Shown here: piece by piece, positions 2,477 through 17,304 of the stretch
Numbering within the stretch: the first letter of the stretch is position 1
Layout of the letters: every line of letters starts with the position of its first letter
NCBI GenBank assembly: GCA_046861645.1
Contig: JBHHUM010000044.1
Location: 1 to 17,436, forward strand
Reading direction: 5' to 3'
DNA: 17,436 nt
DNA from: Fidelibacterota bacterium
GTDB lineage: Bacteria; Fidelibacterota; Marinisomatia; Marinisomatales; UBA2128
Notes under the pieces: generated by a model
The model's input: the letters and a program-made list of their open reading frames with translations, nothing else
What the model was told of the DNA's origin: nothing
Database searches by the model: none
Translations under genes and position numbers: made by a program

Positions 2477-3316
2477 GTGTTGGTCTTTTTTGTAATAGTA
2501 GCCGTCGTCACGGTTGGTGTGGTAAAACACCTTTTTTTCTGGCATCCCCTTGATACGGCTTATCTCTATACTAGAGGTCCCCTCTTTATGGGGCACCGTG
2601 GTTCGCCAGCAGTGTGTCCTGAAAATACACGACCTTCATTCACTCAAGCTGTGGATTCCGGGCTGACGGCTGTGGAGATAGATGTCCTTTCGACCCGGGA
2701 TGGTAAGATTGTCTGTTCACATAATCACGATCTTGAGCGAGAGACAAATGGGGGTGGTTATATTCACGAAATGAATTATAAGGATTTGGTGAATATCGAT
2801 GCGGGCACCAAGTTTCCTGAGTTCTCACCTACACCCATCCCTCTGCTTGAGGAGGTGATCGATGATCTGCCGGAAGAGACATTATTGAATATCGAGGTTA
2901 AATTCACAAAGCCGTTTGTGTTGCGTACAGCGGATCAGTTGGTGAAGATTATCCATAAGAAAAATCTTCGCTCGCGGGTGATGGTTTCCAGTTTTCATCC
3001 GTTTATCATTTGGCGCGTCAAATTCCTCGATAAGCGTATTCCTACGGCCTATATTTGGAGTAATCAACTGGTCCCGAAGATTTTAAGAAAACCACGGTTT
3101 ATCAATCTTGTGCATCCAGACATGCTTAATCCTGAGGCTCATCTTGTGACAGAAGACCTGTTGTATTATGTTCGTCGAAAAGGGATGCGTCTGAATGCGT
3201 GGACGGTGAACAATTATCCCGCAATGATCTGGCTCTTGAATCAGGGTGTGGATGGAATTATATCGGATTATCCTCATTTAATGCTGAAAGCAGCTAATTC
3301 AATGAAGGAGCAATAA
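2477..3316 (+). CDS. Glycerophosphodiester phosphodiesterase (GDPD) family protein with N-terminal TM segment
   Basis: 279 aa, GTG start. Motifs GHRG..PENT, EIDV, LNIEVK, SSF, AWTVN and GVDGIISDYP are typical of GDPD. Starts 8 bp after the previous stop. Confidence 0.92.
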   Translation: MLVFFVIVAVVTVGVVKHLFFWHPLDTAYLYTRGPLFMGHRGSPAVCPENTRPSFTQAVDSGLTAVEIDVLSTRDGKIVCSHNHDLERETNGGGYIHEMNYKDLVNIDAGTKFPEFSPTPIPLLEEVIDDLPEETLLNIEVKFTKPFVLRTADQLVKIIHKKNLRSRVMVSSFHPFIIWRVKFLDKRIPTAYIWSNQLVPKILRKPRFINLVHPDMLNPEAHLVTEDLLYYVRRKGMRLNAWTVNNYPAMIWLLNQGVDGIISDYPHLMLKAANSMKEQ

Positions 3317-5118
3317 TGAAACAGTTAAACCTGAAGATAACGTTACTTGCAGCTATTGTTCTGTTGACAGCCTGTGGTCCGAGAGAGGATGTGGATATTA
3401 CAGCAGATGAAGTTTTAGGTCATATCAGAGTTCTTGCTGATGACCGTTACGAGGGCCGCCGGGCGGGAGAAATGGGTGACCGTAAGGCGGCTCGCTATAT
3501 CAGTCGTCATTTTCGGTCAGTAGGATTGCAACCTTTCGATAATAACTTACATTCTTATCTTCAGCACTTCGATTTTATCAGCGGGGTTAAAGTCGGCAGA
3601 GACAATACTATCACCTACCTTGATAGGGATGGAAGTAAGGTTCGTCTGTACAACCAGAAGGATTTTGTGCCTCTGGGCTTCTCCTCCAGTAAGAGAGTCT
3701 CCGGAGAGGTTGTTTTTGCCGGATACGGAATTTCAGCGGATAGCCTTGGTTTTGATGATTACGAAGGAATAGATGTCTCCGGGAAAATTGTATTACTCCT
3801 TAGGTATTCTCCCGATGGTACTAATCCCCATGGTGATTTCAGCCGGTATTCTCCTTTGCGGTACAAGGCTACGAAAGCGCGGGATAAAGGTGCGGTAGCT
3901 GTCATGATCGCCAGCGGTCCGGCCGATGAAGAGGACGAAAATTATCTGGTGAAGAGTGGTTTTGGTCACGGGGGAGTATCTGTGGGAATCCCGGTAGTCT
4001 ATCTAACAACAAAAGTTGCCCACGATCTGGTGAATCTTGGTGGGAAGAGTCTGAAAGAGTTGCAGGAGCGCTTAAATAAACAACGGGAAGTGGTATCGTT
4101 TTCCATTCCTGCGGTGGTCCAAATTGAGACCGATATTGAAAAGGTACCGGCAAATTCTGCTAATGTTGTGGGTCTGGTGGAAGGAACAGACCCGGAGTTA
4201 AAGGAAGAATATATTGTTGTGGGAGCACACTATGATCATTTAGGTTGGGGAGGAGAAGGTTCCATGGTTAAGGATACGGTTGCCATTCACAATGGGGCTG
4301 ATGATAACGCATCAGGGACGGCTGGCGTGATCGAACTGGCGGAGTGGTTTGCTGCCAATCCTCAGCCACGTAGCTTAATCTTTGTCTCCTTTGGGGGGGA
4401 GGAATTGGGACTCCTCGGTTCAGCCGCATTTGTGGAAAAACCTCCCGTCCCCCCGGAACAGATGGTTGCCATGGTAAATATGGATATGATCGGTCGACTG
4501 GAGGGCAGGGAGATGGTTGTGGGTGGTGCCGGGACCTCCTCCATCTGGAAGGATCTGATCACTGAGAAGGCCGTGGCCTTTGACTTGGAGCCCAAGTTCG
4601 ATGATTCCGGCTTTGGTTCCAGCGATCATCAATCGTTCTATACCAAGGAAATTCCCGTCCTCTTCTTTTTCACCGGTACACACAAAGATTACCACCGTCC
4701 CAGTGACGACTGGTACTGGATCAATGCGGAAGGGGAGGAGCAGGTGTTAAAGCTGGTTCGTGAAGTGTTGGTAGATTTAGGCCACCGGTCACAGCGTCCT
4801 GATTTTGTGGAAGTTCAACAGGAGCAGTCCGGAGGTCGTCGGGGGTTTGCTGTGACACTGGGGACCATCCCTGACTATGCTGGTACCGATGTGGAAGGGA
4901 TGAGAATAACCGGTACACGGAAGGGAAGTCCGGCCGATAAAGCCGGCATGAAGAAAGGCGATGTTCTGGTGAAATTGGGTGACAACGAGATCAAGAGCAT
5001 CTACGATTATATGTACGCACTGCAAGAGGCAAAAGCTGGTGAACCCATAGAAGCAGTTGTTCTTCGCGCCGGTCAGCGTGTTACTCTGGAGGTGATTCCT
5101 GCCCGGAGGCGGGAGTAA
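3316..5118 (+). CDS. M28-family aminopeptidase lipoprotein with PA domain and C-terminal PDZ domain
   Basis: 600 aa. Lipobox LLTA-C20; PA domain (VVFAGYGI..DDYEGIDVSGKIVL); zinc-site motifs GAHYDHLG, GADDNASG, GEELGL, NMDM, SDH and DYH; PDZ (LGTIPDY..GSPADKAGMKKGDV). The start overlaps the GDPD stop (TAATG). Confidence 0.93.
   Translation: MKQLNLKITLLAAIVLLTACGPREDVDITADEVLGHIRVLADDRYEGRRAGEMGDRKAARYISRHFRSVGLQPFDNNLHSYLQHFDFISGVKVGRDNTITYLDRDGSKVRLYNQKDFVPLGFSSSKRVSGEVVFAGYGISADSLGFDDYEGIDVSGKIVLLLRYSPDGTNPHGDFSRYSPLRYKATKARDKGAVAVMIASGPADEEDENYLVKSGFGHGGVSVGIPVVYLTTKVAHDLVNLGGKSLKELQERLNKQREVVSFSIPAVVQIETDIEKVPANSANVVGLVEGTDPELKEEYIVVGAHYDHLGWGGEGSMVKDTVAIHNGADDNASGTAGVIELAEWFAANPQPRSLIFVSFGGEELGLLGSAAFVEKPPVPPEQMVAMVNMDMIGRLEGREMVVGGAGTSSIWKDLITEKAVAFDLEPKFDDSGFGSSDHQSFYTKEIPVLFFFTGTHKDYHRPSDDWYWINAEGEEQVLKLVREVLVDLGHRSQRPDFVEVQQEQSGGRRGFAVTLGTIPDYAGTDVEGMRITGTRKGSPADKAGMKKGDVLVKLGDNEIKSIYDYMYALQEAKAGEPIEAVVLRAGQRVTLEVIPARRRE
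5079..5118 (+). repeat. Left copy of 40-bp direct repeat (3' end of the M28 gene)
   Basis: TGTTACTCTGGAGGTGATTCCTGCCCGGAGGCGGGAGTAA, 38/40 identical to 9809-9848 (offset 4730 bp). Confidence 0.97.
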
Positions 5119-7126
5119 TTATCTCAGCAGTACCATCTTCCGGGTCTTATGAAATGTTTTCTTACTCTCCTGCGACCGTGCTTTGAGTGTATAGATGTAA
5201 ATCCCGGTTGAGGCCATATTGCCACTGTTATCTTTACCATCCCAGATCACACTCTTGAATCCTGCCTCCTCCCTGTTATCGAGGATTGTACGGACTTCTC
5301 TTCCAAGAATGTCGTATATCACTAAGGAGACATAGGAAGCCTCTGGCAGGTCATAGCGGATGGTGGTAGCTGGATTGAAGGGGTTGGGGAAATTCATAGT
5401 CAAAGAATATTCTTCAGGTATACCTTCTTCATAAACAGTCTGTCTCCATTGAATCCAGCTTTCCCCTCTTGCTTGAACTGTATTTGACGAACCAGACGAC
5501 TCTTGACTTCGGTTATCAACTGCCTTAACCCAGTATTTGACTATATCTTTTCCGCTCCCTGTAGAGAAATCTTCATCATGATATGATGTAATTGGACACG
5601 GAATTACAAAAGTATGAGTATCATATAGTGGTGGAGGAAATCCAGTCCAGATAGAAAGTTCCTTATATAAGTTGTATCCTGCAATATCATATTCATTGTT
5701 TGCATCCCACTGAAGCAAAGGGTAACCCACATCTGTTAAAGTTAAATTTTGAGGGGCTGCAGGAGGATAGTCTATTTCAGCAAAATATACATCGGCTCCT
5801 GTATCACTTCTATAATCAGTCCAACAAGGATAAGCAAATCCAGTTGAAGAAGTAATGCCCATATAATGGTGTGTCCACAAAGAGTTTAACGGTTCTGAAC
5901 TAATTTCAGTGACTTGTATTTTCTTCAAAAGTTTGCCCTCCATCAGTAGATCGGGCAACAAACACATCAATCAACATTGGGGTAAAATCCTGAGTCAACT
6001 CATAGTAGGATAAGTAAAGGGTACCTTCATCATCAATGGAAATCCAATTGTGGAATTGCCATCTATCGGTATTTTCTGTAGCAAACAACATAGGTGATGA
6101 CCAGTCTAAACCTCCATCTGTTGATTTGGTAAGATATATATTAACGTCCTTATTATCTTTCGCAGTGTACGTTATGTATAAATCTCCTGAAGTTGGGTCG
6201 ATCGCAAGACTTACGCTATTCCAACTTTTAATTTCCAAAGCAGAATTGTCGTCTATTGCCTCATTTGCTACGCCAAATGCAGGGTCGGTAACAGTCACTA
6301 TGTAATCCAAAGTTGTTCTATCGTTAATAATCTTAGCTAATTTGATTATACCTGACTGACCTCCGTTATCCCCCAATGTATGTCTAAGCCAACTAACAAA
6401 TACGTCACCATTGGGAGCTATAACTGGCATAGACCCTAAAACTCTTTCAAGATTATTTCGTGGAAGATCTAACGGTTCTGTTCGAGGAACTGAATAGAAA
6501 TAAGATTCACCCCCTTCAGCTGAATCAAGAGTTAATAGTGGCCCTAAGTTGCTTATTCTTTCTAAACGTCTGAATCTGATTTTACTTCCTGATTCAAAAT
6601 CAGTCCACGTAATGTGAGCAATCCGGTTGTCATAATCCACTGCCATATATGGCTTATCATCCCTGTCATCCGGATTGTCATGAATAGTTTTATAAGCCCA
6701 GTTTTGACCATAATCATCAGCTATAGCTACCTATATGTCGCCTAGATGCAAAATATCTGTTGAAGCAAAATAACAATAGTAAAAATTACCTAAGTCATCT
6801 ACTCCTGCGGATGGATCGAGACCATATATAAGATATTCATACTCCTCTCCAAGACGATTAGGAACTACATCTATATTCCAGTTTACTCCTCCATCAATTG
6901 AAAATCCATAACCTGGTTTTGAGTAGTAACCGTTAGTAAAATCATTCCAAACAGCCATAAACACGTTTGGATCTTCGGGATGAACAGCAATAGCTGTTTC
7001 ACTTTGGTCGAGCTCATTGGAGTTAACAGGATAAGTATTATGAATCTGTGGGTTAACTGAGCTGAAAGGTAGTATTACTAAACCTACAACTCCCAGAAAC
7101 GAATGAAGATGTCTGTATGTATTCAT
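5119..7126 (-). pseudogene. Disrupted secreted Asp-box (BNR/sialidase-like) beta-propeller protein with an FnIII-like domain and T9SS-CTD/FlgD-Ig-like tail (about 668 aa when repaired)
   Basis: Three ORF pieces join into one gene. 6731-7126 (signal peptide, QSETAIAV, SIDGGVNW) reads through a TAG at 6731-6733 in frame into VAIADDYGQNW..DKPYMAVD and ORF 5906-6646 (STDGGLDW, STDGGQTF). A frameshift at about 5917-5922 then leads into IQVTEISS..PPAAPQNL..YWVKAVD..NFPNPFNP..RKMVLLR. Confidence 0.88.
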
Positions 7127-7228
7127 GATGATATTCTACATTTTACTTTTGTTTATGATTATCATACTAACTATTCATATTTTCATTACTACAATTATTC
7201 TCTTTTCACTATACCAACCTGAAGCCAT

Positions 7229-9628
7229 CTACCGCACATACAAAATCTTTCTTGCTTGATTAATAGAACCTACTCCAAATGAAACGATATAGATACCTGA
7301 AGGCATCTGTTCACCTTTATCATTTAGGGTATTCCACTGTGTCTCATAGTGTCCCGGTTTAAGTTCCCTATCAAGAAGTTTGAGCACTGTTCTGCCCAAC
7401 AAATCATATATGAATAACTCAACATTGGCTCTCTCGCTAACTATGAATGGTATTCTCGTAAATCGATTGAACGGATTTGGATAGTTTTGTGAAAGATGGA
7501 ATGCATTAGGGGTCTGCTGGTCTTGAGTCTCTGATATACCTAGTGGGTACCAGCGATAAATCGCGTAACCCGGATTTCCTTTCACATAGACAATATCATC
7601 AAAAGCTGTTGCACGACTCCCTTCGATCGAAATTATGATTTCTGGCTCTGTAACATGGGATACATCAATTACATCAAGAAAAACACCTGGATACTCAGTT
7701 TTAGTTATATAAACAAATGGAGGAGCGTGTGTCATAGGCATTCTTCCTCCCCAAACACCGGGTGTAACTACACTACCAACCTCGTAGATACTGTCTGGAT
7801 GAACTATCGAGAGTATCTTAAGTCCGTGTGAATCCCCAACTTTTCCAGCCACATAAGCCCAATGTCCGCTGACCTTTATTCCTGTGGACCATCCACCAGA
7901 ATAACTTCCTACCAAAGTAGGTTGCTCTGGGACACTTATATTTATTACCCTGATGCCATTATTTTCCGGAGGATAGTCATTGTTTAGTGCCAGATATACA
8001 AGTGTATCCTGGGCGTCCAGACCGTTGACTCCCTGTATAGGATAATTACTGATCATAAGTGGATTGGTAGGTTCTCCTACATTTACCACAAAGAGTCCGG
8101 AGTCTTGATGGGATATAAAGACCAGTGTGTCTACTAGATCAATCAGAGCTCCTAAATAGGGTCGAAAATCCAAACTATCAGTATAACTAACCACTTCAGG
8201 GTTATAAGGATTTGAAATATCAAATATCCATAGTCCTCCTACACTATCTATTTCGGTTATAGTAATGGGTCCTCCCATAACATACAGGAGTGGATATTCG
8301 AGAACCATCTCCCCCAAGTGGTGTCCAACAGGTATATTGGATATTGGTTGAATATTGTAAGGATCACTAACATCCAAAATCCAGAGTCCAGATGATGCAG
8401 ATGAAGCATACAAATAGGGAAACTCTATCTCCATCTCTATCGGTGTACCGGGAACCCAGTGTACTCCGATTTCCTCTGGGTTAGAAATGTCCTCTACATC
8501 AATAGACCACAATCCTGCATGCTCAGACATAAAAACAGTCGATCCTTGCTTGCACATCCTAATTGTGGCGGATCTCCCGGCTGGTGCAGTCCACTCTAAC
8601 GAACTGACCAATTCCGGTGACGTCACATCAGATATATCGATTATGACAAACCCTGTATCAATACTATTATAAGCTGTATATAGTAAAGATCCTTCTAGGA
8701 TAAATTCTTCAGGCTCTCTATCCATGTAAAGGGCTCCAACTTGAGATGGATTTGCCGGATCTGTCAAATCATATATCCGGAATTTGGGTGAAGCCCAGCT
8801 GCCTACATACAAGAATCCATCCCCTACTTCAAGGGCATCAGTCGGATATAGGGTATAGATGTCGTTGACTTGCTGAGGATTGGAGGGATCAGATATATCA
8901 ATGATTTGAATGGACATTCCCTCCATATTCCCGATGTAGAGATAGTCCTGCCAGATAGCAGAATCCATAACCAGAGATGATCCTATATACGCAATAGCTT
9001 CTGGTGAAAAGGGATTACTTATGTCTAATATAGCTAGAGCGTAGAACCCCCCTAAGTAAGCATGCCCTTCATGAAGGATTATGTCAAAATAAGAATTTGG
9101 CCCATCCCAGAGTCCCACAATAGTTGGTTCAGAATAATTAGATAGATCTACCACTGCCAATCCTGCTCCGGAAGCAACATAGGCATACGGTTCCTTAACA
9201 GCGATTTCGAAGACAGTACCAGGTTCAATCCACACTTCCCCTATCAATGCAGGATCATTAGGATTGGACGTATCCAGAACCTGAAGGAGGTCACCGTTGC
9301 CCATCAATATGTGCTGGCTGTCAAGAACAGCTACAGCATCACAGTTTCTAACAGGCCATCTGCTAATTAACTCCAATGATGAATCGGCAAGCTGTTTGCT
9401 GATATTACTGTAGCCAGTAGGATTGTCAGCAGACATAAGGTATTCTCTAAGTTGAATAAAATCAAAGCCAGTATTTCTTTCAATTCTATCTAGGTCTTCT
9501 ATCATTCTGTGAAATGAGGCGCCATGTGGTATAATTACACTGAAAAGGGTGCTATGGTTTATGAAAAATACAAATAAAAACAGCACTGACTTAGACGATA
9601 CAATACACCTTATGATGAGATGTCTCAC
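7229..9628 (-). CDS. Secreted LVIVD-repeat beta-propeller protein with T9SS-CTD/FlgD-Ig-like tail
   Basis: 799 aa, GTG start, hydrophobic N-terminal signal. About 13 repeats of the LxIxDxSxPxxP type (LQVLDTSNP, LAVVDLSN, LAILDISNP, IQIIDISDP, LWILDVSDP, LWIFDISNP and others). C-terminus LSQNYPNPFN..IYDLLGR..SGIYIV..RKILYVR. Confidence 0.9.
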   Translation of the reverse strand: MRHLIIRCIVSSKSVLFLFVFFINHSTLFSVIIPHGASFHRMIEDLDRIERNTGFDFIQLREYLMSADNPTGYSNISKQLADSSLELISRWPVRNCDAVAVLDSQHILMGNGDLLQVLDTSNPNDPALIGEVWIEPGTVFEIAVKEPYAYVASGAGLAVVDLSNYSEPTIVGLWDGPNSYFDIILHEGHAYLGGFYALAILDISNPFSPEAIAYIGSSLVMDSAIWQDYLYIGNMEGMSIQIIDISDPSNPQQVNDIYTLYPTDALEVGDGFLYVGSWASPKFRIYDLTDPANPSQVGALYMDREPEEFILEGSLLYTAYNSIDTGFVIIDISDVTSPELVSSLEWTAPAGRSATIRMCKQGSTVFMSEHAGLWSIDVEDISNPEEIGVHWVPGTPIEMEIEFPYLYASSASSGLWILDVSDPYNIQPISNIPVGHHLGEMVLEYPLLYVMGGPITITEIDSVGGLWIFDISNPYNPEVVSYTDSLDFRPYLGALIDLVDTLVFISHQDSGLFVVNVGEPTNPLMISNYPIQGVNGLDAQDTLVYLALNNDYPPENNGIRVINISVPEQPTLVGSYSGGWSTGIKVSGHWAYVAGKVGDSHGLKILSIVHPDSIYEVGSVVTPGVWGGRMPMTHAPPFVYITKTEYPGVFLDVIDVSHVTEPEIIISIEGSRATAFDDIVYVKGNPGYAIYRWYPLGISETQDQQTPNAFHLSQNYPNPFNRFTRIPFIVSERANVELFIYDLLGRTVLKLLDRELKPGHYETQWNTLNDKGEQMPSGIYIVSFGVGSINQARKILYVR

Positions 9629-9705
9629 TAGCCTAATCTCATATCTTACAATATTCGAAAATGAACATTCATACTTTGAACTCCTAAGACTCTATTTCAC
9701 AAAAG

Positions 9706-9735
9706 AACTTACATGAATATTCACTCTCTTGTCAA
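9706..9735 (-). promoter_or_regulatory. Putative sigma70-type promoter for the islet genes
   Basis: Minus strand TTGACA (9735-9730), 18-bp spacer, TAAGTT (9711-9706), about 80 bp upstream of the GTG at 9628. The spacer contains the palindrome TGAATATTCA. Confidence 0.4.
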
Positions 9736-9808
9736 CACCTCAAAGGTCAAACGCTTGGCACACAATATATTTTCAGTAAAATAACACATAGTTTTCTAAG
9801 TTACCACT

Positions 9809-9848
9809 TGTTACTCTGGAGGTGGTTCCAGCCCGGAGGCGGGAGTAA
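9809..9848 (+). repeat. Right copy of 40-bp direct repeat (orphan 3' end of the M28 gene, VTLEVVPARRRE*)
   Basis: TGTTACTCTGGAGGTGGTTCCAGCCCGGAGGCGGGAGTAA, differing from the left copy only at 9825 (A>G) and 9830 (T>A). Confidence 0.97.
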
Positions 9849-9856
9849 AGCACTAT

Positions 9857-9884
9857 TTGCATATTTGACTTTTTCCTGTATGAT
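9857..9884 (+). promoter_or_regulatory. Possible sigma70-type promoter upstream of uvrA
   Basis: TTGCAT (9857-9862), 16-bp spacer, TATGAT (9879-9884). A weaker alternative is TTGATT-N16-TAATTT at 10085-10112. Confidence 0.3.
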
Positions 9885-10125
9885 CCTGTTTTAGGGAAAA
9901 GGTGCAGGAGTTAGTAGTTTCCTTGGACGTTAAGTGTTGACGTTCGACGTTTTCTTTCTTCATAAGTTAGTGTGAAGATTGGCTGTTTGGATTGGCGGCA
10001 AGTAAGCAATTTTCCATTACTCCATTTCTCTATTACCAGAACCCCTACCAGTATTTGAGATAAAAATATTCTGACGATTACCTTTTGATTCAACCTCCCC
10101 GTGAGATAATTTCAAGGTTGTCCTC

Positions 10126-12957
10126 ATGGTTTTAGTAAATGACAAGATAGTTGTCCGCGGCGCCCGGGAACACAACCTCAAGAACATCAATGTTGAAATT
10201 CCCCGGAACAAGTTTATTGTCATTACGGGGTTATCCGGGTCAGGCAAATCCTCCCTTGCGTTTGATACCATCTATGCAGAAGGTCAGCGCCGGTACGTAG
10301 AATCTCTTTCGGCCTACGCCCGCCAATTCCTGAGCCTTATGGAGAAGCCCGATGTGGATTACATAGAGGGACTCTCGCCGGCTATCTCCATCGAGCAGAA
10401 AGCAGCTTCCAGAAATCCCCGCTCTACAGTAGGGACGGTCACAGAAATCCATGATTACCTGCGCTTGCTGTATGCCCGGATTGGGACTCCCTACTGCTGG
10501 GAGTGCGGTGATCCTATCCAAAGGCAGACGGTACAGCAGATTGTGGATGCAATCCTGGAGTTTCCGGAAGGGACAAAGCTTCAGATTCTGGCGCCGGTGG
10601 TTCGGGGTCGAAAGGGACAGTTCAAGGAAGTATTCAAGGAAATCCAGAGGGAAGGATTTCTGCGAGTGCGAGTGGATAGGAAATTCCGAAAGATCTCTGA
10701 AAAGATCATCCTTCACAAGGACAAAAAGCACAGTATTGAGGTTGTGGTGGATCGCATTGTCCTCGATGATGAGCAAAAGGAGAGGCTGACGGAATCTGTT
10801 GAATTGGCTCTCAAGATTGGTTCGGGGCTGGTGATTGTGAATCGCGACAGGAAAGATGAGACTATCTTCAGTGAGCATTTCGCCTGCCCAAAGTGTGGTG
10901 TAAGCATGGAGGAGCTGTCTCCTCGGATGTTTTCGTTTAATTCCCCGTACGGTGCCTGCAAAACCTGCGATGGTCTCGGTTCTCATAAGGAGATCGATCC
11001 TGATCTGGTAGTGCCTGACAAGCGGAAATCCCTTGTGCAGGGAGCCATTGCTCCCCTGGGAGAGCAGCCCCGAGGCAGTTGGTACAGCGCTATCCTGAAG
11101 AGTCTGGCCAAACACTACGGATTCAACTTTACAACTCCATGGTACAAATTGCCTTCAAATGTCAGGAAAATTCTTCTCTGGGGGACTGCAGGTGAAAAAG
11201 TAATTATTCAGTATGAGTCTAACCGTTTTTCAGGGGATTATACAGGTGGTTTTGAAGGTGTGATCTATAATCTTGAACGTCGCTATCTGCAGACGCGGTC
11301 TGGTAATATACAGGAGTGGATTGAGCAGTATATGAGCATGCGTCCTTGTCCGGACTGTGATGGAGCTCGCCTGCGAAAGGAGTCCCTGTCTGTTAGAATA
11401 GGAGATATGGACATCGGAAGTATTTCCAGATTGTCTATTACTGCGGTGAATCAGTTTTTTAAATCGTTGTTGATGACGGCGACACAGAAGAAAGTGGCTA
11501 AACAGATACTGAAAGAACTGCGTGAGCGATTGCGATTTCTTCTGAATGTGGGTTTGGATTATTTAACTCTGGACCGGGGTGCCACGACCCTCTCCGGTGG
11601 TGAGGCTCAGCGAATCAGGCTCGCAACCCAGATAGGCTCTCAATTGGTGGGGGTTCTCTATATCTTGGATGAACCCTCCATAGGTTTACATCAGCGGGAT
11701 AATAAACGCTTGATAAATACTCTGTCTCGATTGCGGGATTTGGGCAATACGGTGGTGGTAGTGGAACATGATAGAGAGACGATAGAATCAGCGGATCATA
11801 TTATTGATTTGGGACCAGGTGCGGGTGATGAAGGAGGATGGATCGTCTATGAAGGCTCGCCAAATGGCGTCAATGGTTCCGGGAAATCGGTGACAGGGTT
11901 ATACCTCACGGGGAAGCGGGAAATAGCAATTCCTGCCCAAAGACGTTTGGGAACTGGGAAATTACTAACACTGGAGGGCGCTAAGGGAAATAATCTCCGG
12001 TCTATTGATATTTCTTTCCCGCTGGGAAAGTTCATTTGTGTTACGGGGGTATCTGGTTCAGGAAAGAGTACCTTGATCAATGAGACTCTCTATCCCGTAC
12101 TGGCCCGGAAATTGAATAACGCTCGTACCCACCCCTTGCCCCACGACGGTGTGGAGGGAACGGCTTATTTAGATAAGGTGATTGATATTGATCAGTCTCC
12201 TATTGGTCGGACACCTCGATCCAATCCCGCTACATATACGGGAGTCTTTACTCCTATCCGCGATCTATTTACACAACTACCTGAGTCAAAAATTCGGGGC
12301 TATAAACCGGGGCGATTCTCTTTCAACGTTAAGGGTGGTCGGTGTGAATCGTGTCAGGGTGATGGCCTGATAAAAATTGAAATGCACTTCCTACCGGATG
12401 TGTACGTACAGTGTGAGGTGTGTAAGGGGTCCCGCTACAACCGGGAAACGCTGGAGATCAGTTACAAGGGAAAAACGATTGCCGATGTGTTGAATATGAG
12501 TGTGGAAGAAGCACTGGATTTCTTCAGGAATATTCCCCAGATTAAGCGGAAATTACAGACCCTGCATGATGTGGGGTTGGGATATATCAAACTTGGACAG
12601 CAGGCAACGACACTCTCCGGAGGTGAGGCGCAACGTGTCAAGCTTTCCAGTGAACTTTCTCGCATTGGTACTGGACGAACTATCTATATTCTTGATGAGC
12701 CCACAACCGGCCTCCACTTTGAAGATGTTCGTCTGCTCCTGAACGTCCTGGGCCGACTGGTGGAGAAGGGAAATACGGTAATTGTTATCGAGCACAACCT
12801 GGATGTAATCAAGACGGCGGATTGGATTATTGACTTGGGTCCTGAGGGAGGAGACGAAGGTGGTACCATCGTTACGGAGGGGACCCCGGAACAAGTTGCT
12901 AAAGCACGTAAGTCGTACACGGGTCGATTCCTGAAAAGAATTCTTAACACGGCTTAG
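10126..12957 (+). CDS. uvrA: Excinuclease ABC subunit A
   Basis: 943 aa. [10 protein letters not shown], two Walker A motifs ([16 protein letters not shown]), two LSGGEAQR signatures, LDEP Walker B motifs, CxxC zinc fingers, and [12 protein letters not shown]. Confidence 0.99.
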
Positions 12958-12965
12958 GAAAGCGG

Positions 12966-14939
12966 GTGTCCCGGATAGATCAGCTGTGTATCAATACCCT
13001 GCGTTTTCTGGCCGTGGACATGGTTGAGAGGGCTGGTTCTGGTCACCCGGGAATGCCGCTGGGGGCGGCCCCCATGGCCCATCTCCTCTGGTCCCGCTTT
13101 CTGAAACATAATCCCCGCCATCCAGAATGGTTTAATCGGGATCGATTTATACTCTCTGCTGGACACGGTTCGGCCCTGCTCTATGCCCTCTTACATCTAC
13201 ACGGATACGATTTGTCTCTTGCAGAACTGAAGAACTTCCGCCAATGGGGGAGCAGAACACCTGGACATCCGGAGTATGGTTTGACTCCCGGTGTGGAAAG
13301 TACGACTGGACCCTTGGGACAGGGGTTTGCTATGGGAGTAGGTATGGCTGTGGCGGAAAAATTTTTAGCTGAGAAATTTAATAGACAGGGATTCAATGTG
13401 GTGGATCACTATACTTACGCTATTGTTTCTGACGGTGATCTGATGGAAGGAGTCTCATCTGAGGCAGCATCCCTGGCCGGGTTATGGGGTTTGGGAAGTC
13501 TCATCTATCTTTATGACAGCAACCGGATTTCCATTGAAGGGAGTACGGATTTATCCTTCACTGAAGATGTGCAAGGGCGGTTTCATTCTTATGGGTGGCA
13601 AGTGCTAAGGGTAGAGGACGGCACAGATCTCGATGCCATGGAAGATGCTGTTAAGGAAGCTCAGCAGGATGAGAACCACCCTTCTTTGGTATTGATCAGA
13701 ACGCACATTGGTTTTGGTAGTCCCCAGCAAGACAAGGCGTCTTCCCATGGAGCACCCCTGGGACCGGATGACGTTCTTGCGACTAAAAAGGAGCTTAACT
13801 GGCCGACAGATAAACCATTTTATATCCCTGATGAAGTCAGGAAGTTTTATGTCAACCGGCAGGAACTCCTGGCGAATGGGGAACAGGAATGGCTTTCTCA
13901 ATTCAAGACCTATGGGGAGCAATATCCTGGCTTGGCCGTACGCTTCCAGGAGGTGATGGCCGGGAAGTTACCGGAGGGGTGGAAGAAGCACCTCAAGAAT
14001 TTTACGGTAGAAGATGGACCGATAGCTACGCGTAGCGCTTCCGGATTGGTTCTCAACGGAGTATCAAAGCTGGTGGACAATTTAATGGGTGGCTCGGCTG
14101 ATCTGGCTCCCTCTAATAAAACCATACTGGACGACCGTGAAGAGTTCGGGTTGAAGGGTGCCTGGGGTCCTAACATTCACTTTGGTGTACGGGAACATGC
14201 CATGGCAGCTATCTGCAACGGCGCCGCGTTACATGGTGGAGTGCGACCTTATGCCGGGACATTTCTGGTCTTTTCTGATTATATGCGTCCGGCAATTCGT
14301 CTGGCTGCTCTGATGCAAACCCGGACGATCTTTATCTTTACTCATGATAGTATCGGTGTTGGGGAAGATGGTCCGACACACCAACCTGTAGAACAGATCA
14401 TGAACCTCCGGGCTATTCCTGGGTTGACGGTAATCCGGCCGGCAGATGCCCAGGAGACTTCTCATGCATGGCGGATTGCCCTGGAAAGTGAGGGTCCTGT
14501 GGCTCTGCTTCTTACTCGCCAGAAACTTCCAGTTTTGAATAGCTCTCCTCCCGTGGAACTATTTGCCAGAGGAGCCTATCAGGTTAGCGATAAGGGCTCG
14601 AAGCCGGATTTACTTCTACTAAGTACGGGATCGGAAGTGCACCTGGCCCTGGCGGCAAGAAAAACTCTAGAAAAGGAGGGGTTCGATGTTCGAGTGATCT
14701 CCATGCCGTCGTGGGAACTGTTTGCCAGTCAACCCGAGAACTACCAGCGTAAGTTGATGCCGACTGGTGTTCCTCGACTGGCGATCGAAGCGGGAATTAC
14801 ACAGGGATGGCAGCAATATGCAGATGATATGGTTGGGGTGGATCGCTTTGGGGCATCTGCTCCGGGGCCAGTAGCTTTTGAAAAGTTGGAATTTACCATA
14901 GAAAACATTGTGCGACGCGCCCGGATCTTGTTGAATTAA
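12966..14939 (+). CDS. tkt: Transketolase (canonical bacterial type)
   Basis: 657 aa, GTG start. Motifs [70 protein letters not shown] and FGASAPG. Confidence 0.98.
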
Positions 14940-14976: not shown

Positions 14977-17304
14977 ATGAAAACTCTGGAGGAGCTTCGT
15001 CCCTATTTTGGTTATTGGGAAAAGACCAAGGATCTTATTGATCAATGCATCGATTTGATGCTTAACTTCCGTCAGAGTGGTCATCCGGGAGGTTCCCGTT
15101 CAAAAGTACACGGCCTGGTTACAACGCTTCTCTCGGGAGTAATGCGCTGGGATATCAGGGAACCGGGGAAGCGATTTGGTGACCGGTTTGTTCTCGTTGC
15201 CGGGCATACGAATCCACTGGTTTATGCAGCCCTGGCTGTCCTGAATGAAGCGTTACGAATCAAGTACCAACAAACCGGTGATGAACGGTATCTGGTCAAT
15301 AATGCTCCTGAGCGGGCTCTATATTGGGAGGATCTGTTGACGCTCCGTCGCCGTGGTGGATTACCGGGACATGCAGAGATGTCTGGAAAAACCCTCTTTT
15401 TCAAGTTTAATACCGGTCCTTCTGGACACGGTTCACCTCCAGCGGTCGGTGAAGCCCTGGCTTTGAAGTATGCTGGTTGTGAAGAGGTGAAAGTTTTTGC
15501 TTTTGAGGGGGAAGGAGGACTCACTACTGGTGCAGCCCATGAAGCCAAGAATTCTGCTTACGGTCTGGGTTTAGGGAATCTCATCTATTTTGTTGATTGG
15601 AACGATTATGGGATAGATGATCGTGCTTTCAGCTCGGTTATCCACGGTACACCTGTGGATTGGTTCCAACCTTACGGCTGGCGAGTGGAGGGAACGGAAG
15701 AAGGAGAAAATTGGGAAGCCGTGCTAGCGACGTATCTACGTCTCTTTGACAATAGTGATGAGTACCGCCATACACCAAAAGTATTGTGGACGAAAAACCG
15801 GAAGGGCCGAGATTATGGAGTGTATGATAATAAGAGTCATGGCACCGCTCATAAAATGAATTCAGAGCTCTTCTGGGCAACCAAACAACCCTTTGCTGAA
15901 AAGTATGGTGTGGAATTTGATGGGTTTGGTGAACCGGCTCCGGCGGAATATGAAACCCAAAAGAGGCAATCCCGTCGCAACCTGGAAGTGGTTATGAGTG
16001 TGCTGCATCAGGATCAGGATATGGTGGACTATCTGGCTGAGACACTGGTGGAGCTGGGTGATGCGGTTCCCGAAGAAATACCCACCTGTCGAGTTACCAT
16101 GGCGAATCCATTAAATGATCCCGTGTTAACTAAGTATGCAAACTATCCTGAAGAGCTTTTTTTACCCCCTGGTACGAAAGCCCCCAATCGTAAGGCTTTG
16201 GCGGCATTTGGTTCGTGGCTTAATTCTTACTGCCGGGATAAGTACGGTCGCCCTCTGGTCCTTGCCGCCTCGGCCGACTTGGCCGATTCCACGAATATTT
16301 CCGGTTTTGGTAAGGGATGGGAAGAGTCGCCGGATTTCGGTTTTTATGAAAGGGAGACAAACCCGTCGGGGACAATTCTCCCTCAGCCGATAACGGAGTT
16401 CTGCAATGCCGGGATCATGGCAGGTTTGGCAACAGTTAATTTTGCCGAAAATCCGTATGCCGAATTCAACGGATTTTTAGGCGCCTGTTCCACCTATGGT
16501 TCATTTTCTTACCTCAAATACGGGCTGATGCGGCTTTTCAGTCAGGTGGCACAGGATTCGGAGCTGAAAGTAGGCCGGGTAATCTGGGTAGCGGGACATT
16601 CCGGGCCGGAGACAGCCGAGGACGCCCGCACCCACTTTGGTATTTTTGCTCCCGGTGTAACCCAGCTGTTTCCCCGTGGTGCTATTGTTAATCTCCATCC
16701 CTGGGAGTATAATGAAGTTGCACCCCTTTTAGGGGCAGCTTTAGCAACGGACGTTCCTATCATTGCTCTCCATTTGACGCGACCGCCGGTAGAAATCCCG
16801 GATAGAGTGTCGTTGGGGATGGCTTCTCATCTGGAGGCCGCCCGGGGTGCTTATGTAATTCGTCCCTACGATGATGATCGGCAGCAGGAAGGTGTTGTTA
16901 TTGTTCGGGGGACCAGCTCCACGGCAAATCTGGTAAAGTTGCTGCCGCGTATCGATCGAGAAGGACCAAATGTAAAAATAATTGCTGCTACCTCGTGGTT
17001 ACTTTTTCAGCATCAAAGTGGAGAATATCGTCGCCAAACCCTGTCACCAAGGGAGATGAACGATGCCATGATTATCACCAATGGATCACTGCTACAGATG
17101 CACAACTGGACTGCCAACAAGGTAGTGGCGGACTATTCCCTCTCCTCCGACTGGGATAACCGCTGGCGGAGTGGGGGCAGTATTGATGAGGTGGTCGCTG
17201 AAGCCCATCTCTCGAAAGAGTGGATCTGGAAGGGGATTGAACGGTTTGCGGCAGAACGGGAGGAGCGGTTGATTCGCTTACGGGGTCAGCTCCCTGAAGA
17301 TTAA
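14977..17304 (+). CDS. Divergent long transketolase-like ThDP-dependent enzyme
   Basis: 775 aa with RBS AAGGGAG. Motifs SGHPGG, DRFVLVAGH, LPGHAE, TGPSGHG, GEGG..WND, SHG, SADL, ITEF, GHSG..EDARTH and LTRP are collinear with transketolase motifs but clearly divergent. Confidence 0.88.
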   Translation: MKTLEELRPYFGYWEKTKDLIDQCIDLMLNFRQSGHPGGSRSKVHGLVTTLLSGVMRWDIREPGKRFGDRFVLVAGHTNPLVYAALAVLNEALRIKYQQTGDERYLVNNAPERALYWEDLLTLRRRGGLPGHAEMSGKTLFFKFNTGPSGHGSPPAVGEALALKYAGCEEVKVFAFEGEGGLTTGAAHEAKNSAYGLGLGNLIYFVDWNDYGIDDRAFSSVIHGTPVDWFQPYGWRVEGTEEGENWEAVLATYLRLFDNSDEYRHTPKVLWTKNRKGRDYGVYDNKSHGTAHKMNSELFWATKQPFAEKYGVEFDGFGEPAPAEYETQKRQSRRNLEVVMSVLHQDQDMVDYLAETLVELGDAVPEEIPTCRVTMANPLNDPVLTKYANYPEELFLPPGTKAPNRKALAAFGSWLNSYCRDKYGRPLVLAASADLADSTNISGFGKGWEESPDFGFYERETNPSGTILPQPITEFCNAGIMAGLATVNFAENPYAEFNGFLGACSTYGSFSYLKYGLMRLFSQVAQDSELKVGRVIWVAGHSGPETAEDARTHFGIFAPGVTQLFPRGAIVNLHPWEYNEVAPLLGAALATDVPIIALHLTRPPVEIPDRVSLGMASHLEAARGAYVIRPYDDDRQQEGVVIVRGTSSTANLVKLLPRIDREGPNVKIIAATSWLLFQHQSGEYRRQTLSPREMNDAMIITNGSLLQMHNWTANKVVADYSLSSDWDNRWRSGGSIDEVVAEAHLSKEWIWKGIERFAAEREERLIRLRGQLPED

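Follow-up and report, generated by a model that had tools for sequence, protein, structure and literature searches.

A repeat-bounded, integrase-less islet of two secreted-protein genes beside an M28 peptidase gene in an uncultured Fidelibacterota bacterium

Introduction

The fda locus of Streptococcus thermophilus provides an example of a cis-mobilizable element (CIME), or decayed island. The flexible genomic islands of aquatic prokaryotes, whether additive or replacement, are usually larger than the islet described here, and either lie beside tRNA genes with integrases or are exchanged homologously without duplication of the target. CIMEs have lost the genes for integration and transfer yet have kept the attachment sites attL and attR (PMC6323972). 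Islands that lack an integrase and lie between repeats derived from a gene's 3′ end are an already known kind. The present study concerns a 4.69-kb islet in an uncultured Fidelibacterota bacterium, which lies between the gene for an M28 peptidase and uvrA and is bounded by two copies of the last 40 bp of the M28 gene. The islet is cargo-only and carries no mobility gene; sister lineages do not have it, and of its two genes one is in decay.

The islet resembles CIMEs and decayed islands in its direct repeats, one of which restores the 3′ end of the target gene, in its lack of integrase and transfer genes, and in the existence of an empty site in relatives. It differs from CIMEs in that no cognate integrative and conjugative element (ICE), integrative and mobilizable element (IME) or integrase for the site was found in our searches, and in that the repeat has no recognisable recombinase core; unlike the hosts of CIMEs, its host belongs to an uncultured marine phylum without described integrative elements of this type. 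Like the 3′-end or C-terminal displacement at Rhs and type VI secretion system (T6SS) effector-immunity loci, which is attributed to homology-facilitated illegitimate recombination (PMC5361080), it consists of a block placed after the conserved part of a gene, with the resident 3′ end moved downstream as an orphan, no recombinase, and secreted cargo. In contrast to the Rhs and T6SS cases, the displaced piece is just 40 bp, is nearly identical to the new end, and creates no new C-terminus; furthermore, the target is a housekeeping-type peptidase rather than a polymorphic toxin, and there is no array of successive orphans. The flexible islands resemble it in form: a small block of genes for surface or secreted proteins that varies among strains, holds a fixed place amid conserved genes and has flanks with recombination tracts.

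The genome under study (G000) is a metagenome-assembled genome of 2.51 Mb in 184 contigs (94% complete), and the window is its whole contig C179, the stretch of 17,436 bp that was analysed. Comparisons were made with 40 relatives, among which G001, G002 and G003 belong to the same genus; sampling of the genus is thin, at four species. Another relative, G024, shares the M28-uvrA gene order and was compared alongside the three congeners. Sequencing runs X1–X4 represent the likely source sample and X5 and X6 come from a different study; the alignments were made with contigs assembled from these runs.

Results and Discussion

Duplication of the M28 gene end

The islet and the genes that it separates are arranged as follows.

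3316–5118, plus strand: intact gene for a peptidase of 600 residues with M28, PA and PDZ domains (Pfam Peptidase_M28 1e-41, PDZ_2 3e-09, PA 6.8e-07), the target gene
5079–5118, plus strand: left repeat copy, the working 3′ end of the M28 gene (last 13 codons plus TAA), attL-like
5119–7126, minus strand: cargo gene 1, a pseudogene for a sialidase-like (BNR/Asp-box) propeller with a type IX secretion system (T9SS) C-terminal domain (CTD)
7229–9628, minus strand: cargo gene 2, an intact gene for an LVIVD-repeat β-propeller of 799 residues with a T9SS CTD (Pfam LVIVD 6e-33, Por_Secre_tail 8.4e-06)
9629–9808: AT-rich, non-coding DNA that precedes the LVIVD gene and forms the right end of the cassette
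9809–9848, plus strand: right repeat copy, an orphan M28 tail with no open reading frame (ORF) upstream, attR-like or the displaced original end
9849–10125: ancestral M28-uvrA spacer with a terminator-like hairpin at 9923–9947
10126–12957, plus strand: uvrA, assigned by Pfam

A first-pass annotation, made from the letters of this stretch alone, had claimed that the last 40 bp of the M28 gene are repeated 4730 bp downstream with 38 matching positions, and alignment, shuffled controls and a genome search all confirm this. The copies at 5079–5118 and 9809–9848 are identical at 38/40 positions, with a start-to-start spacing of 4730 and 4,690 bp between them. A second match with at most three mismatches appeared in 0 of 200 dinucleotide-preserving shuffles; the real window holds two matches, and these two are the only copies in the whole 2.51-Mb genome. 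The two mismatches between the copies are ATT/GTT (Ile/Val) and CCT/CCA (synonymous), and both states are seen in the M28 genes of relatives, which carry an M28 ortholog in 40 of 40 cases (77–80% amino acid identity in the three same-genus genomes). The right copy is 37/38 identical to the M28 tail of G003 and has the G003 allele at both variable sites.

An assembly artefact or a chimeric contig could be suspected in a metagenome-assembled genome of 184 contigs, particularly as the source sample holds variants (X1 has two 115-nt versions of 7940–8054). However, in a separate assembly, long contigs run across each of the two junctions. The left junction is spanned by X1 record 1 (4600–5562) and the right junction by X1 record 8 (8025–10300), these bridging contigs being 2115 nt and 14662 nt long; records 9 and 16 of X2 also bridge junctions. 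Moreover, the right junction was found again in the other study (X6 record 29), and the longest exact run common to both copies is 18 nt. With both junctions bridged and so few exact bases shared, an artefact is very unlikely, to the point that we give it almost no weight.

Empty sites in relatives

The first-pass annotation had proposed a search for an empty site in related genomes, and such sites were found. In G002 and G024, the M28 gene is followed directly by uvrA, with spacers of 280 bp and 159 bp, respectively; this gene order is limited to the genus and G024 among the relatives, and the corresponding spacer in G001 is 697 bp. The DNA from position 9849 onward is homologous to the DNA that follows the M28 stop codon in G003, G002 and G001, and is ∼93% identical to the G003 spacer. 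The right copy is the original gene end, since it is contiguous with this ancestral downstream DNA, including the terminator-like hairpin. The expectation that the gene end had been restored and the original displaced is therefore borne out: the left copy now ends the working M28 gene, and the original end survives downstream as the right copy.

An empty site was also found in a contig of the second study. X5 record 17 (1030 nt, depth 146) joins position 5095 to position 9826, skipping exactly 4730 bp. It is 85% identical to the window on the M28 side and matches at 317/319 positions on the uvrA side; of 21 variant positions on the M28 side, it has the G003 letter at 13, compared to 5–7 for G001, G002 and the metagenome contig L047. 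Thus, this contig is the empty site of a G003-like sister lineage and not a demonstrated within-species polymorphism. The same study (X5/X6) also contains contigs that are 94–98% identical to the interior of the cassette at a depth of ∼3–11. One of them, X6 record 29 (9706–9845), runs from the cassette into the right copy, which indicates that the same junction exists outside the source sample. In one X6 cassette variant, 9593–9706 (112 nt, comprising the first LVIVD codons and the upstream region) is swapped for 115 unrelated letters.

The assembly of G003 is interrupted at the same place. Its contig C173 (L025) ends inside the M28 tail, immediately ahead of the first position at which the repeat copies vary, and its contig C1 (L045) starts 2 nt into the right copy, at a shared TTACTC run, and continues into the spacer and uvrA; the two contig ends overlap by 14 nt. 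This break suggests mixed alleles in that sample. No cargo contig was found in the G003 bin. Among the X1 and X2 contigs, neither an empty-site joint nor a back-joining joint, as expected of a circle, was found, a result that is neutral either way because rare variants drop from contigs. No X5 or X6 contig at the low depth of the cassette variant was at least 90% alike over the M28 part of the window, a gap that proves nothing. Based on the empty sites and on the ancestral spacer that follows the right copy, we conclude that the 4.69-kb block is a true insertion relative to the ancestral M28-uvrA arrangement and that sister lineages are without it.

Cargo between the copies

The cargo consists of two genes, one of which is already a pseudogene. 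The block had been described as AT-rich, on the opposite strand and coding for CTD-tagged propellers. Its composition (GC 0.34–0.44 between the repeat copies vs 0.43–0.53 in the flanks), strand and domains agree with this description, but the three small ORFs (6731–7126, 5906–6646 and 5119–5970) are one broken gene read in three frames, with one in-frame stop and one frameshift. This gene encodes a signal-peptide-like start, followed by a sialidase-like propeller with Asp-box motifs and a C-terminal half ending in the CTD (Pfam BNR_2, weak; FlgD_ig, 1.5e-11; Por_Secre_tail, 2.5e-05). Its stop codon abuts that of the M28 gene with 0 nt in between. The C-terminal half is typical of the lineage and is 48–64% identical to paralogs on contigs C24, C181, C116 and C68 (up to 75% for the CTD alone). 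For the propeller part, a search of 232 further genomes of the order at E≤1e-15 returned nothing.

The LVIVD protein has no close relative among the 40 relatives, where it finds just CTD or partial LVIVD matches of ∼30–48% identity, and its best match in the GTDB species genomes (one per species) is at 25–29%. The non-coding parts of the cassette are 7127–7228 (102 bp) and 9629–9808 (180 bp), which leaves no room for a further gene; the non-coding right end together with the repeat amounts to 220 bp.

Ancestry of the flanks

The two flanks of the islet relate differently to G003. The left flank is at background identity, about 75% (mostly 65–88% per 100 nt), whereas the region from 9809 to ∼11400 is 84–97% identical and is followed by background again. 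In uvrA, third-codon-position identity between G000 and G003 is 82, 54, 64, 76, 98, 84, 84, 92 and 78% in the first nine bins of 50 codons and 34–68% thereafter, compared to 28–74% for the five other same-genus pairs and 22–52% for G000 with G024; codons 50–150 are at background within this stretch (54–64%). In the M28 gene, third-position identity to the three congeners is flat (34–68%), with no visible mosaic. Judged by these identities, we read the region from 9809 to ∼11476, consisting of the right copy, the spacer and the first ∼1.35 kb (∼450 codons) of uvrA, as a mosaic tract exchanged recently with a G003-like lineage. We propose that exchange tracts on the uvrA side go no further than the orphan tail, the point at which homology to empty-site relatives is lost.

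The X1 and X2 contigs that cover the orphan right copy have G>T at 9818 and G>A at 9821, both synonymous in the M28 frame. These variants hint that the orphan tail has been refreshed by recombination with the working M28 tails of empty-site strains.

Search for mobility machinery

The Pfam matches in the cassette are limited to propeller and CTD domains. Genes for integration or transfer are lacking, and no domain of a recombinase or transposase was detected in any cassette ORF; the earlier statement that the block lacks an integrase or transposase holds for all of these ORFs. No terminal inverted repeats (TIRs) were found, the best inverted match between the ends being 7 nt (E 1.8). No attC-like or core-type hairpin was found at either boundary, the inverted repeats within 9629–9808 are weak and internal, and Rfam gave 0 matches in the whole window at gathering thresholds.

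The first-pass annotation had also called for a search for a candidate recombinase elsewhere in the genome. The tyrosine recombinases present are two Xer-sized proteins (C125 and C107), a 373-residue integrase with an internal TAG, and two fragments; no serine recombinase was found in the 94% complete genome. No cognate autonomous element or integrase using the same att site was found in genomes of the order, in viral contigs or in the genome itself, within the thin sampling of the genus. The 40-bp tail is also present in the JGI metagenome contig L047, which has a G002-like empty site and ends 150 nt after the stop codon.

Several known types of element were rejected. A transposon or insertion sequence does not fit a block without a transposase domain and TIRs and with a 40-bp duplication. 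An integron gene cassette was set aside since the ends have no imperfect hairpin, as judged by an inverted-repeat search, and the only integron-type integrase noted is the broken one, which lies on another contig. Diversity-generating retroelements are recognised by a nearby reverse transcriptase, mismatches confined to template adenines, and repeats of ∼100 bp or more. Here, there is no reverse transcriptase domain, one of the two mismatches is G vs A in the wrong sense, and the repeat is 40 bp. A Xer/dif-type site in the 40-mer was set aside by eye only, against the consensus.

Recurrence of the site and of the layout

Different cargo between the same repeats, for which the first-pass annotation had proposed to look, was not found at the loci of 26 relatives. 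The M28-uvrA spacer of G001 (L023, C23 5719–6415) contains a decayed plus-strand fragment that ends in a T9SS CTD and is spread over three frames with an internal stop, and the G002 spacer keeps only the first ∼105 and the last ∼100 nt of this spacer type. Thus, a different CTD gene once sat in the G001 spacer, as read from this remnant, but it is not bounded by the 40-bp repeat.

A genome-wide scan for direct repeats (at least 28 nt, at least 90% identical, 0.5–40 kb apart) returned 16 pairs, two of which have the layout of a gene end, CTD genes and an orphan end. The second is on contig C68 (L074), where the 3′ end of a small gene on the minus strand, together with the spacer downstream of it, is present twice as a 178-nt repeat (302–479 and 5309–5486; 98.9% identity over copies 5007 bp apart). 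Between the copies lie two CTD genes, encoding proteins of 995 residues (β-helix and CTD) and 606 residues (with a CTD), and the repeat sequence is unrelated to the 40-mer. The genes flanking it belong to paralog families, and no orthologous locus was found in G001–G003 or G024. A pair on C34 (L075; 5798–5999 and 12446–12647; 202 nt, 90%, 6648 bp apart) was rejected as a further case because it spans 5′ ends and upstream regions; its repeat-bearing ORFs are two on the minus strand, of 308 and 577 residues. Short pairs in or near CTD-coding stretches on C64 and C126 were judged from their coordinates to be paralog similarity. As to other repeat-flanked CTD cassettes in the genome, for which the first-pass annotation had proposed a search, C68 has the same layout, but its repeat is unrelated and the layout occurs in just 2 of the 16 pairs.

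Possible mechanisms of insertion

The three mechanisms raised in the first-pass annotation, a cassette mobilised in trans, a decayed integrative element, and homology-facilitated illegitimate recombination (HFIR), remain live candidates. We tentatively favour, at somewhat less than even confidence, the entry of a circular cargo molecule by a single crossover within the 40 bp of identity, catalysed by a recombinase acting in trans or by RecA; the circular intermediate and the catalyst are the parts that we infer. In addition to the two secreted-protein genes, the circle (4,730 bp) would have held a promoter region of 180 bp and the M28 tail in a 40-bp copy. One reciprocal crossover with the chromosomal M28 tail (Campbell-type integration) would then have produced an intact M28 end (attL-like), the cargo, and an orphan tail (attR-like) joined to the old terminator and spacer. 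The catalyst could be a site-specific recombinase that acted in trans and came from a helper element absent from this genome, or the host RecA acting on the 40-bp identity. This explanation is favoured because it is the standard origin of such repeats and because the islet is a compact two-gene unit with the repeat on its non-coding end. Several observations weigh against it. The flanks differ in ancestry (left ∼75% and right 84–97% identical to G003; 85% vs 99% in the X5 contig), and a second copy of the resident M28 tail was found downstream in 0 of 26 relatives' loci, for which 286–17,949 nt of downstream DNA was available. Beyond a 6-nt terminal inversion seen by eye, the 40-mer has no inverted-repeat core or hairpin. 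Of 233 genomes of the order, 3 contain the 40-bp tail, in each case only at the M28 gene, and viral contigs gave 0 matches; no helper element was found, and the recombinases of the genome itself are Xer-sized, broken or fragmentary tyrosine types. In addition, since the C68 repeat is unrelated in sequence, one site-specific enzyme would not explain both loci.

The second explanation is HFIR, a form of 3′-end displacement that we regard as possible but doubtful. Here, linear DNA taken up from a related donor, with the cargo natively located after an M28 ortholog, would have recombined homologously within the M28 gene at one end, and the other end would have been joined illegitimately 40 bp before the recipient stop, leaving the last 40 bp as an orphan without any element, att site or recombinase. 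The contiguity of the orphan tail with the ancestral spacer fits this course of events, as do the two mismatches, which look like coding-frame allele differences with both states present in M28 genes of relatives. The same is true of C68, as random illegitimate joints would give orphans of variable length, such as its unrelated one of 178 nt. The different ancestry of the two flanks is also predicted by HFIR, but it can be explained otherwise, as any insertion ends homology at that point, and the flank evidence does not discriminate. The stop-to-stop abutment of cargo gene 1 and the M28 gene is native-like; among 124 convergent gene pairs, 5 are at 0 nt and 27 are at 5 nt or less or overlapping, and being not unusual here it was dropped as a discriminator between the mechanisms. 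ComEC and DprA are present in the genome, but these are near-universal and do not show competence. A donor-type locus was not found: in 21 other genomes (61 post-M28 ORFs listed, 25 of them run through Pfam), M28 is followed by a gene of the housekeeping type (SLT_2 in 5), G034 alone has a CTD protein after M28, on the same strand, and there is no convergent CTD gene. Nor was such a locus seen in the four M28-uvrA genomes; both cargo propellers are without close relatives, and comparison with the three congeners reveals no mosaic in the M28 gene. An origin of this kind has been proposed for the orphan 3′ ends of Rhs and T6SS effector loci in PMC5361080, where HFIR is also reported to be orders of magnitude rarer than homologous recombination. 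This rarity and the lack of a donor-type locus incline us toward circular integration, whereas the absence of a helper, the unrelated longer repeat of C68 and the coding-like mismatches incline us toward HFIR, or toward RecA over a dedicated enzyme.

Two other explanations appear unlikely. A double illegitimate insertion at a staggered break, with ends 40 nt apart, would have duplicated 40 bp by fill-in, with the mismatches arising later or by recombination with empty-site relatives. The islet has no recombinase, TIRs or att-like structure, as expected of such an event, and the right copy carries the G003 allele at both variable sites within a recently exchanged tract, so the mismatches could be secondary. 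However, one break must fall exactly after the stop codon, positive evidence is wanting, and known transposases make target duplications much shorter than 40 bp, which counts against this origin. An equally improbable alternative is an active, undescribed exchange of T9SS cargo genes, in which CTD-gene cassettes would move between fixed loci via short duplicated gene ends (40–180 bp) by host functions only. It would account for two loci in one genome with a gene end, CTD genes and an orphan end (the M28 locus and C68), for the decayed piece of another CTD gene in the corresponding G001 spacer, and for the breaks of the G003 contigs exactly at the edges expected for mixed filled and empty alleles. 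Against this, the layout is seen in just 2 of 16 repeat pairs, C68 is flanked by genes with several paralogs, and in G001 the repeat does not enclose the remnant. Furthermore, one of the two cargo genes is broken, and there is no alternative cargo at the site. Moreover, CTD genes are the commonest accessory genes, with up to ∼100 first-look candidates per genome. The orphan tail could serve repeatedly for docking and excision, which would make the M28-uvrA spacer a recurrent landing pad, with T9SS-protein genes gained, moved and lost as small recombinase-less cassettes by host recombination; we consider this improbable too. The suggestion that secreted proteins are swapped at a fixed locus by an undescribed route thus keeps two weak hints, the G001 remnant and C68, but alternative cargo is lacking, the tail occurs only at M28 genes in the 233 genomes of the order, and the aligned contigs contain no circle junction.

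Other genes in the window

The remaining genes of the window lie on either side of the M28-uvrA locus.

42–2468: penicillin-amidase-like gene
2477–3316: GDPD gene
12966–14939: canonical transketolase gene
14977–17304: transketolase-like gene, a paralog of 775 residues

The domain matches of the 775-residue paralog are weak (E 1e-14 and weaker), and the transketolase pair is conserved in G001 and G003.

Conclusions

Assignment of the islet to the CIMEs falls short of a cognate element, and HFIR falls short of a donor locus; both shortfalls may stem from the thin sampling of the genus, at four species. We conclude that the islet at the M28 locus is a real but fairly ordinary strain-variable island, and one more example of the common class of integrase-less islands. 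It provides a clean case of a change in the set of secreted proteins of an uncultured, streamlined marine lineage: its boundaries are exact, the ancestral empty site is known, one cargo gene is in decay, and the recombination tracts go no further than the scar. If repeat-bounded cassettes prove to be recurrent in this group, part of the strain-level turnover of T9SS cargo would be explained without classical mobile elements.

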